Assembly (NCBI GenBank): GCA_951804945.1
Contig: OX638150.1
Coordinates: forward strand, 102,858,001-102,922,000
Reading direction: 5' to 3'
DNA length: 64,000 nt
Source of the DNA: Podarcis cretensis
Taxonomy: Eukaryota
Shown here: positions 15,738-60,560 of the stretch, piece after piece
Layout: each line of letters begins with the position of its first letter
Position numbering within the stretch: position 1 is the first letter of the stretch
Translations under genes and position numbers: made by a program
The notes under the pieces: generated by a model
Told to the model about the DNA's origin: nothing
The model's database searches: none
The model's input: only the letters and a program-made list of their open reading frames with translations

Positions 15738-16332
15738 TACCTTTTTGAGTAGATTCAATCAGGGGTCAAATATACCTGTCTAGGTGCAGATCTCCACTTC
15801 GGATAGTGTCACCGCAGAAAACATTGTGTGCCTTACCTCCAAAAGCAGCAGCATTCAAGAGTAGACCCTGTGCCGCTGTGGGTAAAACCTCAGCGCCTAG
15901 GACTTGCCGATCACATGGTCGGCGGTTCGAATCCCTGCGGCGGAGTGCACTCCCGTTGTTCGGTCCCAGCGCCTGCCAACTTAGCAGTTCGAAAGCACCC
16001 CCGGGTGCAAGTAGATAAATAGGGGCCGCTTACCAGCGGGAAGGTAAACAGCGTTTCTGTGTGCTGCGCTAGCTCGCCAGATGCAGCTTGTCACGCTGGC
16101 CACATGACCCGGAAGTGTCTGCGGACAGCGCTGGCTCCCGGCCTCTAGAGTGAGATGAGCGCACAACCCTAGAGTCTGTCAAGGTACCTTTACCTTTTTA
16201 CCTTTTTGAGTAGATTCAATCAGGGGTCAAATATACCTGTCTATGCGCAGATCTCCACTTCGGATAGTGTCACCACAGAAAATATTGTGTGCCTTACCTC
16301 CAAAAGCAGCAGCATTCAAGAGTAGACCCTGT
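15738..16332 (+). repeat. 134-bp direct duplication (15738-15871 / 16199-16332) flanking the Sauria SINE
   Basis: The two copies align without gaps, with 4 substitutions counted by eye. Confidence 0.93.
15872..16198 (+). mobile_element. Sauria SINE (slightly 5'-truncated)
   Basis: ggttcgaatccc B box, body tgcaagtagataaatagg...gggaaggtaaac, (ACCTTT)n tail. Collinear with the 24154 copy except for a ~19-bp deletion before the tail. Confidence 0.92.
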
Positions 16333-24153: not shown

Positions 24154-24519
24154 GGGACGCAGGTGGCGCTGTGGGTTAAAGCCTCAGCGCCTAGGGCTTG
24201 CCGATCGAAAGGTCGGCGGTTCGAATCCCTGCGGCGGGGTGCGCTCCCGCTGCTCGGTCCCAGCGCCTGCCAACCTAGCAGTTCAAAAGCACCTCCGGGT
24301 GCAAGTAGATAAATAGGGACCGCTTACCAGCGGGAAGGTAAACGGCGTTTCCGTGTGCGGCTCTGGCTCGCCAGAGCAGCGATGTCACGCTGGCCACGTG
24401 ACCCGGAAGTGTCTCCGGACAGCGCTGGCCCCTGGCCTCTTAAGTGAGATGGGCGCACAACCCCAGAGTCTGTCAAGACTGGCCCGTACGGGCAGGGGTA
24501 CCTTTACCTTTACCTTTTT
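24154..24519 (+). mobile_element. Full-length Sauria SINE
   Basis: gggacgcaggtggcgctgtggg head, B box, (ACCTTT)n tail. TSD tactttgaaaga (24089-24100 / 24520-24531) with a complex 5' junction. Confidence 0.95.
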
Positions 24520-24850: not shown

Positions 24851-24980
24851 TAGCAGAGGGAGTGAAGATAATGACAATAACAACTGCATTAATTGAAATT
24901 TCCCCTGAAGGGCTCTAAATAACCCTTGTTCCTCCTTCAAGTAGTTGTGACGACAGGGAGAACCATGAATGACACCTTCA

Positions 24981-25190
24981 TTTTTTTTTAAAATATTTTT
25001 TATTAAATTTTCACATTTTATAAAGACAAACATACACACACAAAGACAAAGACAACACGTATAACATTTCATAACCTTACTTTCCTAACCCCAGTTCTTG
25101 ACCTCCCCCCACCCCCCCTTCATACATCCTAGTTCAGTTACATTAACTCAGCAAATTCAAATCTCTCATCCATTGCATATTATTACTATA

Positions 25191-25226
<36 letters not shown>

Positions 25227-26846
25227 TTTAAAAAAAAACCATTTACTTGGCCAGATTTTACTTATCCAATTTTCTTATAAAACATTAAAGCCTTTTCTAA
25301 GGTCGTCTCGAGTTCCTTCCACGAATTTCCCTTTAATCTTAAAAATAGGTCATAATAATCAAACACAAAAGTCATAAAGATTTAAAAACAAGTTCTCCTT
25401 TCCCCCCCCCCAGCCCCGGTTTCTGTCCCTTCCAAATGTCCCCCCATCCATAACAACAGTTTTTAGCCTGGGTTCCTCACATCTGAGGCCTTTAAGTCCT
25501 TGTCAGTCTCTCTTTGCCGATTTTGTTGGTAACCCTCCTCATTGGTCCTCAGGTTTCGGGGAAATTTCAGCTCAGTCTCATCAGAATTTCTTCCATCCAA
25601 AGTACTTGACACCAGCTGCTGCAGAAGATCAACCAGTCCATACTCAAATAGGAAGCCCCAGTCGTATTTCTTATTTCTTTTAAAATCAGGTATTCCAGAT
25701 GTTCCAGGGGCTTCCTCCCTCCTCTTTCGCATCTTTCGCAGATTTGTAATCCAAGGGTCTTCTTCTTTGTATTCTAACAATGTAGGCTTGTGGTTGGTAG
25801 TCTCCATCTGTACTAGCCCTTGCTCGCTCTCCCCCTGTTCCGAAGTTATCTCTTCTGATTCAGCTGCAGATTTTTCCCCAGTCAAATCCATTGTACCTTC
25901 AGCAGAGTCATTTATTTTAGAGTTCAAGGTTATGAGTTGTTTACTCATGACCGTAGTCTGCTCCTCCAGTTTTCCCACAAGAAAAAACATTCTTTCTAGC
26001 TCTGCCTGTAGTTTTCCATCTGCAGCCATTGCAATGTTTCAATGTTTCCCCTAGGGGGATTCTAGTTACTTAGTAATCTTTTCCAATAGTCCTTTACTTT
26101 GTTATTTCCCTACTTTGTTTCCAACCACTTTAGTTCGAATGTAACAAATTAAGTCCAAAAAGTGTTAAATAATAGAGTTTTTCACTTTCGCTGCCCGTTT
26201 GACAGCTCCTTTGACAGCTGTCAAACTCCTCGTTCCTTGTTCTCCGGCTCACATAAAAGGACACCCCTGGGTCTGGGGGGGTTCAAAAAAAAAAAAAAAA
26301 CTTCTAAAAAATCACTCTTACTCTCCAGCACACATCTTCTTCTGTCAAATTCATGCAAATCTTATCTTTTACAGAACACCAAGGAAAGAACTCTCCACCT
26401 TAGTTCTCCGATCTTTGCTTTAAATTTTCTGTAGGCAGGGGGGTGCGGACTTCCCTTTAGCACATCCCCCGATTGTGCCGAATTCAAGGATAAGCTTTTT
26501 AAAGTCCAAATTCCAATCTACTCACGGATTAATTAAAGTCCGAATTTCAGGGAAGAAAGTCAGCGGTCTCCGGCCATGGCTCGCGGCTTCGCTCCACTGC
26601 AGTAGCGGTCTACTCACAGCACCACGCCACTCCCCGTACCCTCTCCGCAGCCTTTAAAAAGGCTCTTCGTGGGTCGGGGGGGCGCTTTAGGTGCCCGCCG
26701 AGTCACCAGGTCCGCAGGCTTCCGCGCCTGCGGTTTCTAAGGGTCCCCGCGTCGCCGTCGCGGTGAGACCCGTTTGCAATGGAGCCGATTCCCTCCGGAG
26801 CTCAGAGGGAATCCGCCATTACTCGGATCGCGCTAACCCGGAAGTC
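24981..26846 (-). mobile_element. Full-length 1.87-kb non-autonomous L1-like retroelement with a single ORF
   Basis: Exact 19-bp TSD accatgaatgacaccttca (24962-24980 / 26847-26865). Minus-strand 5' end gacttccggg...taatggcgg in a CpG-rich leader; AATAAA plus A-tail at the other end; no RT. Confidence 0.9.
25463..26029 (-). CDS. 188-aa ORF of the non-autonomous element; L1 ORF1-derived, coiled-coil-like N-terminus
   Basis: Open from ATG, heptad-like LQAELERMFFLVGKLEEQTTVMSKQLITLNSKI. 'TNLR' and the terminal ASDVRNPG* echo the ORF1 at 59016-60035. Confidence 0.6.
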   Translation of the reverse strand: MAADGKLQAELERMFFLVGKLEEQTTVMSKQLITLNSKINDSAEGTMDLTGEKSAAESEEITSEQGESEQGLVQMETTNHKPTLLEYKEEDPWITNLRKMRKRREEAPGTSGIPDFKRNKKYDWGFLFEYGLVDLLQQLVSSTLDGRNSDETELKFPRNLRTNEEGYQQNRQRETDKDLKASDVRNPG

Positions 26847-29181
26847 ACCATGAATGACACCTTCAGCTCCATGTAAACTAATAATGAAACGCCTTCCCCT
26901 GCCTACTGCCCTTGCTGTTGCAGTGAGTTTTGATGTCCTTTTCCCAGCCTGTAATATTTCAACTGAGTCAGGATAAGAGAAGGGTATCCTGGGCTGCAGT
27001 GAGTTGGGGATGCAGGTCTCTCTTAATAGCGAGCTATCAATTTATTTAAGAAGAATATCATTCATAGTGTGTGGATGGGGATCTACACACTAGATCTCTG
27101 GGTGGTTTGCAGTAGATCACCAAGGATTTCTGTCTGCTGGTTATTTAATAATAGCAAGAACTCTCCCCATCCCCAGTTAGGTTGTGCAATGATGAAAGTG
27201 GAGTTGGGTGGGAATCAGAAACAGTTTTTTGTGTGCAAGGATTGTTTCAGTTCTAGTACTGGGTGGTGGGGCAGAGATTCCTGGACTGAGGTGCTATCAA
27301 AGGTGCACTATTCCTTAATTCTAAGTATGGGCCTCCAATCAAAATCTCTATCTTGCACTTGGATCCAGCTGGGGTTCAATTGCAGTAGGGTTGGTTGGGG
27401 GAAGGAGATAAGCTCACCCATCCATAATGTATACCACCAGGAGATTCAGTCTGCATGAATATATATTGTATATATGCAGGTTTATGCAGATGGGAAATCA
27501 TTCTAGACAGTGGCGTAGCTAGCCGCTCAGCTGCCAAGTGCGGTGCATGCATCCTGCAGCCAGGGTGGGATGAGCTGTCCATGGGGGCGTGGCGTGCTGC
27601 ATAGAGCCTATCTGCCATCTCCCCCTCAGCTGTAGGGCGGCTGAGGGAGAGGCAGAGGTCAGACTCAAGTCCCACACTGCTGTTTCAGGGAGCACAGAGC
27701 CTGCAGGCGCCCAAGCCACCACGTCACTCCCAGGAGAGACACGTGACTCAGGCACGCTGCAGGCCCTGCGGTAAGGTCCTCTGCCACTTGCATCTTCACT
27801 AGGAGGGGGGCCCTGTGGCCCCTGCAGATGTTATCGGACTCCAACTCCCAGTGGACATACTGCCTTGGGCTAAAGGGAGTTGGAATCCAACAGCATTTGG
27901 AGGGCCACATATATGGAGAATCATTTGCACATACGGCACCCCACAGAATATCCCTATTTTCAAGTGGAGTGTTGGAGGGTAAGCTAATGCACCTAGATCA
28001 GTGGAGAAACCTGCTGCTGCGATTCCCCCTACCCCCATACTATTCATTTCCACATCTGTTAGCATCAGCAAAGGAAGGGGTGAAGAATTTTAGGACTCAT
28101 TGAACCCTCCCCCGGACCACACTCCTCACTGGCCCTGGTTTGCACACTGGGTGCTTTTGCTGGAAAATCACAACACATAAACTCATGCAACTTCCTAACA
28201 TTAATTTCTTGAATATTGTGCTCTCCATTTTGTTATGCATCTGCTGTATGTTCGATGCTTGGACGTGCATTACTAGGTTTTCATTTCACTTTCCTGTGTC
28301 CCCCCACCTTTCTTTCCTTTAACAACCCCTCCTTGTTTTGTTGCTGCTGTACTCTTATAAGTTTGCACTGTACCGCCTAGTTTGTACTGAATTTAGAAAA
28401 GTGTAAAAATTTCAACTTAAAAAAAGAAGAAGATTATGGATTCGCTTCATCTGCAGAAATGCATATTAGTGCTGCAGTTAATACTTAGCAAGTAAAGAAG
28501 CGGATTTTGGAAGGACAGAAAACACCGAAAGAAGATTCTTTTGAAATGTAGATGCATAGTGAAGCACTGCTTTAAACCCTTCTCTTAGGTAAACAGGATC
28601 TCAAATCATTTTCTTTTGGAAATTTAGAAGGACATTTCTTCCACTTCCCCTTCCCTCCCCTCCCACCTTCTCTGTACTTTAAGTCTACAATCATGTACTT
28701 CAAACTCAGTGTTCTACAGGATTGCCTGCTACATCAGGTATTTCTTCTGCAATAAACATCAGACTGACAGGCCAACAGTTCCACTAGTCTGCAGAGCTGG
28801 CCATTTGCTATGCGCAGAACTTCAGGTAATACTTATTGAGGGGGAAAGTTGAATACAATTATTTTTAAAATTAAACATGGGCATCACAGATTTTTCCACA
28901 GACGTTGCAACACAATTCCACAGTTGGTACTGCATGCCTAGTTCAGCAAGTCTAGAGAAAGCGGGAGGGGGTGGTGGTCCTCTCTACTACACCAAAATGG
29001 ACGTTTTGTTGCAAAACACTTTGTGACTATTTGTACCTGGACTAAAAGAGAAAACCTGAAAAGATGATGAATGTTTGACATTCTCATGAAATCCATTGTC
29101 TTGTATAAAATCTTTTGAAAGGCAGGGAATGAGCACAAAAAAGGTTAGAAAATACATTGCACGCTATTCTTTATATTAATA

Positions 29182-29543
29182 AGGTAAAGGTAAAGGTACC
29201 CCTGCCCATACGGGCCAGTCTTGACAGACTCTAGGGTTGTGCGCCCATCTCACTCAAGAGGCCAGGGGCCAGCGCTGTCCAGAGACACTTCAGGGTCACG
29301 TGGCCAGCATGACATCGCTGCTCTGGCGAGCCAGAGCCGCACACGGAAATGCCATTTACCTTCCCGCTGGTAAGCGGTCCCTATTTATCTACTTGCACCC
29401 GGGGGTGCTTTCGAACTGCTAGGTTGGCAGGCGCTGGGACTGAACGACGGGAGCACACCCCGCCACGGGGATTCGAACCGCCGACCTTTCGATCGGCAAG
29501 CCCTAGGCGCTGAGGCTTTTACCCACAGTGCCACCCGCGTCCC
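29182..29543 (-). mobile_element. Full-length Sauria SINE
   Basis: Reverse complement of the 24154 family; 13-bp TSD ctttatattaata (29169-29181 / 29544-29556). Confidence 0.95.
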
Positions 29544-43979: not shown

Positions 43980-44900
43980 CACCCCTTCCGCTCGCTCGCT
44001 CGCCCTCCCTTCTCCACCTCTTCCCGCTGGCAGTCCGACTTACCCACTCCAGCACCCTCAGGAAAGCCAGGGGCTCCTTCAGCGCCCGGAAGGTTCCCTT
44101 GGAGGCGAGCTGGGGGGGGGGGAGAGAAAAGCCAGTAAGGGCAGAGTTAGGGCAGGAGGGGTGCCAACCCCCGCGGCGAAGCCTCCCGGCGCGCGCGCTT
44201 CTCCCTCCCTCCCTCCCTCAGGCGCCCTTACCTGGTTAACGGGTTCCATCCCTGCCCGGCTTTTGGCGCGCAAACTTCAGCTTCCCCGGAGGAGGCGGCG
44301 TCCAGGTGCAAGGAGCGCCCTGGAGAGGCTCTAGGCGGCTTGCCCGCGCCGAGCAAGGCAGCCGAGGAGCCCGGCTTGGAGCGAGCGAGGCGGGCGGGGG
44401 GAAAAAACCCAGAAGAGCTGAGCTCCCAGCGAACATCCACGCCCGAGCCGAGCGCGCAGGGCGGAGGGAAGGAGAGGAGAAGGAGGAGGAGGTGGGGTGG
44501 GCTGCCCGGGCTCGCCGCTCTGCCGCGCTTTAGTCGCCTGAAGAAGCGAGGGCGAGGTGGCCGGGCCGCTGCTTGAGAGAGGAGGGGGACGCTTCAGCCG
44601 CTCGCTTCGCCTTCTCACGGGCTGAGCGCTTCTCCCCTCACAAACCTCTGGACGGTGCTGGCGCGCTTCCTCAGCAGGTCGAAGCGGAGGCAGAAATAAG
44701 AACAGGAGGAGGACTTTTTGAAGAGAGGGGACGCGCTGCCACTCCGGCGCGTTTTTTCCCGCGCAGCGTCCCTGCGAAAAGCGGCGCGCTCGCTTCAGTC
44801 GGCGTCTTCCCGCCGAGGGAAGAGCTGCGCCCTCCCTCGCGCGCGCGACGTGGGACTCGTAGCCCGATCCTACGTCTCCTCAGAAGCCGCCTTATACCGA
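43980..44900. promoter_or_regulatory. CpG island promoter
   Basis: Abrupt GC/CpG enrichment (gcgcgcgc, GC boxes gggcgg) against an AT-rich, CpG-depleted background; not part of a recognisable repeat. Confidence 0.92.
44232..44249 (-). CDS. Probable coding end of the first exon of an unidentified gene (MEPVNQ, phase-0 intron)
   Basis: Strong Kozak context gcagggATGG and a near-consensus donor CAG|gtaagg at 44232/44231 within the CpG island. The exon could instead be non-coding. Confidence 0.55.
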
Positions 44901-45067
44901 ATCAGAGCACTGGCCCGTCTAGCTCAGTAATGCCTACACTGACTGGCAGCGGCTGTCTAGGTTTTATCGCGCAAGTCTCCCAGCCCTACCTGGAGAGGCC
45001 TGGGATTGAACCGGGGACCTTTTGCTTGCAAGGCGGACCCTCTACCACTAAGCTATGGCCCTTCCCC
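44882..45067 (-). mobile_element. tRNA-derived SINE (Squam2-like) at the CpG island edge
   Basis: Reverse complement ggggaagggccatagcttagtggtagag...ggttcaatcccagg (A/B boxes). Relatives at ~3120-3240, 47480-47670 and 63050-63242. Confidence 0.82.
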
Positions 45068-58507: not shown

Positions 58508-60560
58508 AAATATATATATATATATTTATTACTTTTCCAACAATTTAAACACTACAAAAAACAAGAACAATACAATACAATACACAAACACTACATAACA
58601 CTAACACATTAAACTAACAACACAAAACAAAAACAATTTAAAGCACATCAAATAATTTCAATATCTTATTTCCACGACCTCCTCACACCTCCCTTTTTGT
58701 ATTCCACTTCTGTTAATTGTTTCAGCAATTCCTTTCCATCTTCCTCTGTTTTCTATCCTGTAATTATCTTAGCACATTCTAACCTTATTTTCCCTTTAAT
58801 ACTCTATTAATCTGTTTATATTTAATTCCTTATAATATTTCTACTAAAGCCGTGTAACTTCATTCCAACATTTTTCTAACATTCATTAAATTTACAGTAT
58901 TTCCATAAATAATCTTTAAATTTTTTCCAGCCTTCTTCCGCCGACTCTTCTCCCTGGCCTCGGATTCTGCCAGTCATTTCCGCCAGTTCCGTATAGTCCA
59001 TATAGTCCATCAACTTCATCCTGGTGATCTTCTATCCGATGCTCTTGGCTCTTTTCCAAGTCCCTTCTGCAGATCTTCATATTTATACAAAAACTTTACT
59101 TTATCTTCTACTGATCTTATTTTTATTTTCCTTCCTTTGAAACTGAAGGATAGACCTTGGGGAAACTCCCACCTAAAGATGATTTTGTTCCTTCTCAGCA
59201 GGGCAACAATATCTCCATAGTTAGGCCTAAAATCTAAAAGATATTTCGGGACGTCTTTAAAAATGTCCACTCTTGACTGTTGTACTTCTAGGTTCTTCTG
59301 GTAATGCCAACCCAAGATTCTATCTCTCTCTTCTTTAATTCGAAGGGTGATCGAGCAGTCTCTTAATCTATTCTTCTCTTTTTTCCCTCCTCTTCGAAGT
59401 CTGAAGGCCCTCACAGTTCTAAACTCTTCTTGGCCCAAGTCCAAGTCCCAAAAGTCAGCAGATTCCTGTATGAGAAAATCTGTCAAGCTTTCCTTCTCCA
59501 ATTCAGGTAGGGCTCTGATCCTCAAATTCGTCTGTTTTTCTTTAAGTTCAATCATAACAGGCGTCAACTTATGTTCATCAAGTTGCCTCTCTAGGGCTGG
59601 GACTCTCTCTCTCTCAAGTTGTGTTACTTTACATTCAGCAGCAACGGCTTCCTCCCTGGCTTCCTCCGCAGTCTGCCATATCAAAGTAGATTCCTGTATC
59701 AATTTCTGGATAGTTTCTGTATTAGTATTCACCTTTTGTCCCAAATTATTTATACTTTCTGTATTTAAGTCAATTTTAGTAGTTGCAGCATCCACTTTCA
59801 CATTTATCGCGTCTGTTTTCTTGTTAAGTTGTTCCAGTGAATCATTTATCTTAATTAATGCAGCCGCTAAGGCTTCTTCTGTTGACATTCCTCTTGATTT
59901 TGAGTGTACTGATGCAAAAGCAGCAGCGGAAGAGGCAGAGGGGCCTGATGTTGAGCCTCTCCTGGATTGCTGCCAAGTCCTCCCAGACCTTAATGTTTTT
60001 TCAGCAATTGACTGGTCTGTTTTTTTCCTTTCCATTTGCCAAAACACTTAAAAAATTCAAGGTCAGTCCCAGAGTCTCACAGTTCTTTATCTTGCAGCTG
60101 GAAATTCCCCTAGCCCAGCTCTTGTAAAGCAACCAGTTTCAAAGGCTTCCACTAGGGGCAAACAGTTTCTATTTATATTAATCCGTAATGTCCTCTTTTA
60201 AACACAGTTTCCAACAATCCAAAGTTAGTTTCAATTTTCAGTTACTTTTACTCCTTTTTAAAAGCAGCCGGAGACAATAGAAACAATGTATTTCTCTTGT
60301 TTAGCTAGCTGTCAATGAACGTTCTAAACACTGTCAATAAGCATTCCAAGAGACGTCAGTCCTGCTAGCAGCCCGTTTCCAGAGTCAGAGCGGCAGTATT
60401 TTAGCTCTCTTCGCTCTCTCCTGCAGGCATACTCAATCCACAACTTTCCCCCCTCTTCTCCTGCCTCCAAGGGGGGGGGGTTAATGTTCTTTACCAGTGG
60501 AAATTTAGTCCTTTACAGTAGGCTTTCCGAGACTTCACCTCAGGGTTTACTCCCGAAGCC
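58508..60560 (-). mobile_element. L1 element with intact ORF1 and almost all of ORF2 deleted (HAL1-like); 5' boundary uncertain
   Basis: 5'UTR-like region, ORF1, 47-codon ORF2 C-terminal remnant (58876-59019), 3'UTR, AATAAA (58525-58530) and (TA)n tail. Confidence 0.85.
59016..60035 (-). CDS. L1 ORF1p (coiled coil + RRM + CTD; Transposase_22-like)
   Basis: 339 aa open from the first ATG. Long heptad region, NLRIRALPE (RRM start), RAFRL, IFKD and FRWEFP motifs typical of vertebrate L1 ORF1p. Confidence 0.88.
   Translation of the reverse strand: MERKKTDQSIAEKTLRSGRTWQQSRRGSTSGPSASSAAAFASVHSKSRGMSTEEALAAALIKINDSLEQLNKKTDAINVKVDAATTKIDLNTESINNLGQKVNTNTETIQKLIQESTLIWQTAEEAREEAVAAECKVTQLERERVPALERQLDEHKLTPVMIELKEKQTNLRIRALPELEKESLTDFLIQESADFWDLDLGQEEFRTVRAFRLRRGGKKEKNRLRDCSITLRIKEERDRILGWHYQKNLEVQQSRVDIFKDVPKYLLDFRPNYGDIVALLRRNKIIFRWEFPQGLSFSFKGRKIKIRSVEDKVKFLYKYEDLQKGLGKEPRASDRRSPG

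Follow-up and report, generated by a model that had tools for sequence, protein, structure and literature searches.

What protein does a short, mobile L1 derivative without ORF2 encode, where does that protein come from, and why is it kept? These questions are raised by a 1,866-nt element on the minus strand of a 64,000-nt stretch of the Podarcis cretensis genome (the window; assembly GCA_951804945.1, contig OX638150.1, positions 102,858,001–102,922,000), which carries one open reading frame (ORF) of 188 aa between target-site duplications (TSDs). They bear on why half-L1 elements (HAL1) keep their gene and on how an RNA made by polymerase II overcomes the preference of L1 for its own RNA. We find that the element belongs to a young, multi-copy, ORF2-less family of L1 derivatives moving as a short unit. 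Judged from alignments, its ORF is not new in origin; it derives colinearly, by erosion, from the ORF1 of a known class of lizard L1s. We hold this account of structure and ancestry to be nearly certain. The element is laid out as follows, in window coordinates:

24962–24980, no strand: TSD, 3' side, 19 bp, exact repeat; its empty site was seen in sequencing run X3
24981–26846, minus: whole non-autonomous L1-derived element, lineage A, 1,866 nt
24981–25462, minus: 3' part, 482 nt, comprising a worn ORF2 C-terminal remnant, L1 3' untranslated region (3'UTR) and (TA)n
24981–24989, minus: A tail, 9 nt
24999–25004, minus: AATAAA
25463–26029, minus: ORF, 188 aa, an L1 ORF1 eroded in frame
25466–25531, minus: conserved C-terminal stretch of 22 residues inherited from the ORF1p tail, with a C-degron-like R-x-P-G-stop end
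25895–26023, minus: N-terminal helix, residues 3–45, about five heptads in the ancestral coiled-coil register
26030–26846, minus: 5'UTR, 817 nt
26048–26058, minus: CCYYTAG.G palindrome or acceptor-like motif ahead of the ATG, kept in 90 of 90 5'UTRs
26447–26846, minus: CpG-rich region, predicted to act as internal promoter
26520–26525, minus: splice-donor-like GTGAGT in the 5'UTR, kept in 84 of 90 5'UTRs
26847–26865, no strand: TSD, 5' side, 19 bp, exact repeat

A preliminary description of this DNA had proposed a complete short element with a CpG-rich leader, a 5'UTR of about 820 nt, an A tail and no ORF2, and this layout holds in every part. The exact TSDs leave no space for an ORF2 between them, and the first 400 nt have a GC content of 58% and an observed/expected CpG ratio of 1.07. 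Among the other same-strand ATG ORFs that overlap the element, the longest (128 aa) extends into the flank. The 5' start is the terminus of lizard clade-1 L1 elements, with about 70% identity to the 5' ends of full-length L1s (loci L052–L062), and its motif agrees with the start consensus given in excerpts of PMC5381506. An Rfam search returned two matches only, near E 0.8.

The description had further held that the element retrotransposed recently as this short unit, and had asked whether uniform copies with distinct TSDs and a retained ORF occur genome-wide; they do. We searched 1.51 Gb in 51 contigs, candidate numbers from these searches not being copy numbers. A DNA search with the element gave 3,589 first-look candidates, and 38 of the 40 that were scored span nearly all of it at 96–100% identity. 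All 30 fetched family loci keep the 188-aa ORF, 28 of them have their own TSD (11–21 bp), and their mean pairwise divergence is 1.3%. A protein search, in which 150 of 3,230 candidates were scored (89–100%), found 137 of the 150 free of stops, a best-first and hence biased sample that nevertheless sets the family at no fewer than 150 ORF copies. The first 34 nt occur exactly at 68 genomic positions (reversed control, 0); three of these loci, which had no top ORF match, are full-length copies lacking the whole ORF. Moreover, in run X3 a contig of single-copy depth crosses the empty site, and the filled junction occurs in run X4; the insertion is therefore polymorphic, and such insertions are usable as population markers. 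The assembly may derive from run X4. No RNA data set was listed as containing the element; runs X1 and X2, which are only guessed to be RNA, contain pieces of relatives.

The origin of the ORF was traced through related families, recovered by searching with divergent homologues (20, 20, 10 and 10 loci fetched), and through a second element in the window. ORF lengths are counted from the coiled-coil methionine, and nine loci without an extracted ORF were dropped:

58522–60540, minus: 5'-truncated copy of the ancestral half-L1 stage, the second element in the window
HAL1a: ORF of 290–291 codons
HAL1b: ORF of 276 codons
HAL1c: ORF of 258–262 codons
Lineage D: ORF of 209–212 codons
Lineage C: ORF of 208–220 codons
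Lineage B: ORF of 188–191 codons
Lineage A (focal element): ORF of 188–189 codons

The second element, 96.9% identical to locus L064, contains a 343-codon ORF1 frame (59019–60047) with an SPG-stop end, followed by an ORF2 C-terminal remnant, and its relatives include full-length old L1s (ORF1 of about 395 aa) and half-L1s. At the half-L1 junction the ORF1 tail is fused to the end of ORF2, about 3.8 kb having been deleted between short CAG/AT matches. From this stage onward, alignments of both DNA and protein keep colinearity and reading frame between the start and stop codons. Lineage C (L085) and the homologue P0008 match the 260-aa stage end to end in BLASTP (E 8e-16 and 2.5e-21), an ORF1p profile recovers 7 of 13 short ORFs at E ≤ 2e-4 while no reversed control falls below 0.11, and the 261-aa stage is 51% identical over 98% of its length to a protein named L1 RRM domain-containing in UniRef. 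A tree of 35 representative ORFs rooted on HAL1a is a ladder, most backbone nodes having ultrafast bootstrap (UFboot) values of 94–100 and three being weaker (81, 68 and 63); a separate 5'UTR tree (first 480 nt, 28 rows, excluding L057 and two rows of uncertain 5' end) recovers the same broad order. Homology to the old L1 3'UTR is clear in lineages B, C, D and HAL1; the 3' part of the focal copy itself gave no BLAST match to it. We also considered whether the start of the ORF derives from the L1 5'UTR, which the alignment rules out.

The segment preceding the coiled coil was lost first, then 14 codons of the coiled coil, then the RRM core and then 17 codons of the C-terminal domain (CTD); in lineages A and B the RRM start is deleted as well. 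Along the series, identity to HAL1a falls through 84, 78, 37, 29 and 26%, and the isoelectric point drops from 8.8–9.4 to 4.9–5.8. The ORF had been described as remodelled and as the element's own; heavily remodelled it is, and its ancestry lies in the in-frame erosion of ORF1 from a known lizard L1 class. In agreement with the missing RRM and CTD motifs first noted, the focal protein has lost most of its RRM and a portion of the CTD. In contrast, the TNLR that had been read as a retained ORF1p motif is a coincidence: WITNLR (residues 93–98) aligns to WDLDLG of ORF1p, the true RRM-start motif, TNLRIRALPE, having been deleted in the lineage.

What remains of ORF1p is therefore not canonical, its RRM start, RRM core and CTD end having been deleted. 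The coiled-coil-like N-terminus recognized at the outset is present as a helix at residues 3–45 with heptads in the ancestral register, about five of them against a helix of about 105 residues in the model of the helper L1 ORF1p (see below). AlphaFold2 is confident for this helix only (mean predicted local distance difference test score, pLDDT, 49.6). Searches of Pfam, PDB sequences, the ESM Atlas and Foldseek gave no match for the 188-aa protein. Pfam, however, gives no L1 ORF1 match even for lizard ORF1p, and for the helper ORF1 model human ORF1p is within the top five Foldseek rows, but at E 0.2–1; fold and domain comparisons are therefore weak here. Named homologues are from Podarcis, one relative being annotated as a hypothetical Podarcis gene. 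The series documents a retrotransposon protein turning into an orphan ORF without family or fold match.

Is this ORF still under selection? A dN/dS below 1 had been anticipated, and codon models for 27 short-ORF sequences indeed indicate purifying selection, with a ratio (ω) of 0.56 overall (2dL, the likelihood-ratio statistic, 77), 0.38 for codons 1–42 (2dL 46) and 0.42 for the last 22 codons (167–188), values that mix master-lineage and post-insertion changes. Kappa-aware likelihood tests, in favour of which NG86 ratios were set aside, reject ω = 1 in five of six long-branch quartets, and no quartet exceeds 1. Purifying constraint on the ORF is moderate and strongest at both ends, and we consider selection at the protein level probable. 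An alternative is that the ORF is a neutral relic in a family driven by few master copies, ω below 1 coming from mutation bias or RNA-level constraint. Transition bias does inflate simple dS, the families came to light mainly through protein searches, a route biased towards open frames, and a sister family spreads without the ORF (see below). Nevertheless, the frames survive an NG86 dS of about 1 between lineages, they are open in 13 full-length database homologues (176–215 aa, all unnamed Logan proteins, with both ends in common), and the kappa-aware tests reject ω = 1 overall as well as in the quartets; we regard a neutral relic as very improbable.

Gaps in the ORF raise another explanation, namely that translation alone matters: an open frame would stabilize the RNA or hold ribosomes on it, for instance by sparing it the decay that a long 3'UTR can set off, and the sequence of the peptide would hardly matter. 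In 12 pairwise comparisons, the pairs of which have shared branches, 19 of 19 ORF gaps are multiples of three versus 24 of 163 in the 5'UTR; a thirteenth pair, across the longest branch, has 12 ORF gaps, 7 of them not multiples of three, with the net frame kept. Such a role would also suit the heavy remodelling, down to 26% identity to the first half-L1 stage, the free loss of domains and an ω of 0.5–0.7 on long branches. It does not predict that constraint sits at the ends (0.38 and 0.42 versus 0.63 in the middle), nor that F15, L17 and G19, first seen at stage D, are fixed thereafter (16 D-to-A rows shown) and so postdate the 260-aa stage; and the sister family spreads lacking any long frame. 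We consider this explanation rather unlikely.

A possible source of the enzymatic machinery was indicated by a 1.5-kb 3' piece of an active L1 inside the 5'UTR of a young focal-family copy (L034:2026–3533), which led to an L1 family at 99–100% identity. In 6 of 20 fetched loci this candidate helper L1 is intact, with an ORF1 of 351 aa and an ORF2 of 1,245 aa containing endonuclease and reverse transcriptase domains. All TSDs of at least 12 bp (n = 64) are 12–21 bp long and A-rich at positions 2–5; lengths and A-rich starts fit the use of the L1 endonuclease. Trans-mobilization of the focal element by ORF2p of intact L1s in the same genome is likely.

Protein-coding capacity is dispensable in a sister lineage of the element. 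Locus L055 harbors a relative of about 1.6 kb (L055:6932–8570) in which the ORF region is frameshifted and remodelled. Six loci of this family have an identified TSD of 16 bp or more. As detailed below, it is both nested among ORF-bearing lineages and young; the ORF was therefore lost secondarily without halting amplification, and since the family is spreading, the protein is accessory, not required. The suggestion that the ORF serves to keep the RNA translated for capture by ORF2p accordingly fails as a requirement. With its L1 promoter, this young family is in effect a polymerase II 'SINE' (short interspersed element) descended from ORF1.

We give about an even chance to the following explanation as a whole: the element is a young half-L1 with a stepwise, in-frame-shortened ORF1, copied by helper ORF2p and encoding an accessory protein. 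The L1 promoter would make a capped, polyadenylated RNA, and at A-rich targets its A tail would serve helper ORF2p for priming. RNA packaging would be beyond the acidic relic protein, which is probably still made and of modest advantage in cis. Its N-terminal heptad helix might join helper ORF1p assemblies during translation, bringing the RNA near ORF2p, and the R-x-P-G end might ensure its rapid turnover, which would spare the helper from poisoning. This last part, docking of the helix on helper ORF1p combined with rapid turnover, we put forward tentatively, at somewhat less than an even chance. Support for the docking step by analogy comes from PMC5605252, according to which human ORF1p forms of 132, 157 and 255 aa heterodimerize with full ORF1p.

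For turnover, excerpts of PMC10614623 report that APPBP2 binds R-x-x-G at the extreme C-end, and excerpts of PMC12035522 that KLHDC10 prefers -PG ends. By sequence, the focal terminus has the form of a CRL2 C-degron substrate (R-x-x-G or -PG); its designation as a putative C-degron is speculative. Among the 13 database homologues, 12 end in R-x-x-G and all 13 in PG, and of the nine loci missed by ORF extraction seven read PG too (one without a stop, one out of frame). The DVRNPG end may resemble 2A peptides, though in lineages A and B only.

A number of observations weigh against this explanation at its several levels. Concerning ancestry, the focal protein on its own does not match the ORF1p profile (E 0.22). 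Concerning selection, constraint on the middle of the ORF is weak, the long-branch quartet from C to A is non-significant (2dL 2.4), and private changes alone give NG86 pN/pS of 0.40–0.55, so that simple dN/dS overstates constraint. The R-x-P-G-stop end, whose four codons all vary synonymously, is shared by all 107 extracted ORFs, but the extraction demanded a PG-stop end, and the PG-stop arose through the deletion itself. Concerning docking, identity between the focal helix and the coiled coil of the helper is only 26% (E 0.08), and excerpts of PMC5381506 doubt trimer formation by lizard ORF1p. Concerning any use of the protein, a search with the ORF-less relative gave 1,741 candidates, all 40 scored copies being 99–100% alike; no ATG ORF longer than 78 aa exists in the 29 parsed of 30 loci (L153–L182), and the family is sister to A and B, nested among ORF-bearing lineages (UFboot 99).

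The same two constrained parts, a coiled-coil start and a degron-shaped end, would equally be expected of a defective-interfering weapon, in which the helix enters helper ORF1p oligomers and the C-degron sends them to destruction; the preference of L1 for its own RNA would be weakened and ORF2p freed for the parasite. Truncated human ORF1p with six or more heptads does suppress L1 in trans, as stated in PMC5605252. The low identity to the helper coiled coil argues against such an effect here, as does a section title of the same paper, according to which human-mouse chimeras do not suppress human L1; moreover, the benefit would be a public good, exploitable by ORF-less cheaters such as the sister family. 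We judge the weapon distinctly improbable. A more elaborate variant, which we consider quite unlikely, though less so, is that ORF1p became a new adaptor, with a short coiled coil, a new hydrophobic face and a C-degron, that hijacks or degrades helper ORF1p to break cis preference, the ORF-less family being a cheater on the parasite. If true, this would constitute a three-level system of L1, parasite and hyperparasite with its whole evolutionary series in one genome. Irrespective of which explanation applies, active families with 291, 276, ~260, ~210, ~190 and 0 ORF1 codons form a natural deletion series, and with this series beside an intact helper L1 the gene-retention question is directly testable.

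Several further features accompany these families. The donor-like GTGAGT and the CCYYTAG.G motif are conserved in the 5'UTR at every stage and in both L1 families; the pair possibly marks a 5'UTR intron or a factor-binding site. A spliced 5'UTR was rejected for lineage A, the donor-acceptor junction having 0 genomic matches. Lineage C copies with equal scores lie near chromosome ends (C11:132987, C11:251027, C6:101935051, C6:101981898, C3:126624280 and C3:126665875), perhaps spread by subtelomeric duplication, not retrotransposition. Elsewhere in the window, a GC-rich island (67%) at 44001–45000 is probably a host promoter, and short interspersed repeats of 89–94% identity lie at 24154–24519, 29178–29543 and 15870–16183, the focal element being near one of them.

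How does the element compare with known systems? Dependence of a non-long-terminal-repeat element with only ORF1/Gag on another element's reverse transcriptase is found in Drosophila HeT-A, which is telomeric, of the Jockey clade and has a functional Gag. Unlike HeT-A, the focal element is dispersed and its protein a relic. With lizard clade-1 L1s, as described in excerpts of PMC5381506, it shares the 5'-terminal consensus and the long 5'UTR, and with its parent family (L053 type) about 70% identity over the first 300 nt; unlike them it has no ORF2, and its ORF1 is about half length, acidic and without intact RRM or CTD. Like the truncated human ORF1p of PMC5605252, as far as the excerpts of that paper go, the focal protein is a coiled-coil fragment without RNA-binding domains. 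Those human forms are premature-stop products of dead L1s or constructs, whereas the focal fragment belongs to a spreading family, is missing the N-terminal segment of ORF1p and shows strong divergence from its helper.

The closest counterpart is HAL1 of mammals, an ORF1-only L1 derivative (excerpts of PMC5753468, PMC4859970 and PMC13756887). The focal 5'UTR and ORF are colinear with an L053-type L1 and the trees agree; the sole ORF traces to ORF1 by stepwise homology; the elements, 1.8–2.2 kb between TSDs, have no ORF2; and the unit is multi-copy with TSDs (28 of 30), poly(A) and 68 exact 5' ends. The element thus falls under the HAL1 definition as it stands in the excerpts of PMC5753468, and it works like HAL1, with an ORF1-derived protein only, an L1 5' end, TSDs, poly(A) and multi-copy families. 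Unlike mammalian HAL1, it resides in a lizard, is recently active and polymorphic, and shares its genome with the complete series of intermediates as well as an offshoot without the ORF. Its ORF1 is eroded past recognition by Pfam, PDB and Foldseek. The literature searched yielded no account of the family or of a comparable stepwise erosion, Repbase/Dfam and paper supplements lying outside the comparison; the family could already be listed in repeat libraries that supplement lacertid genome papers. The family is HAL1-like, and what is unusual about it is the preserved deletion series together with the ORF-less offshoot.

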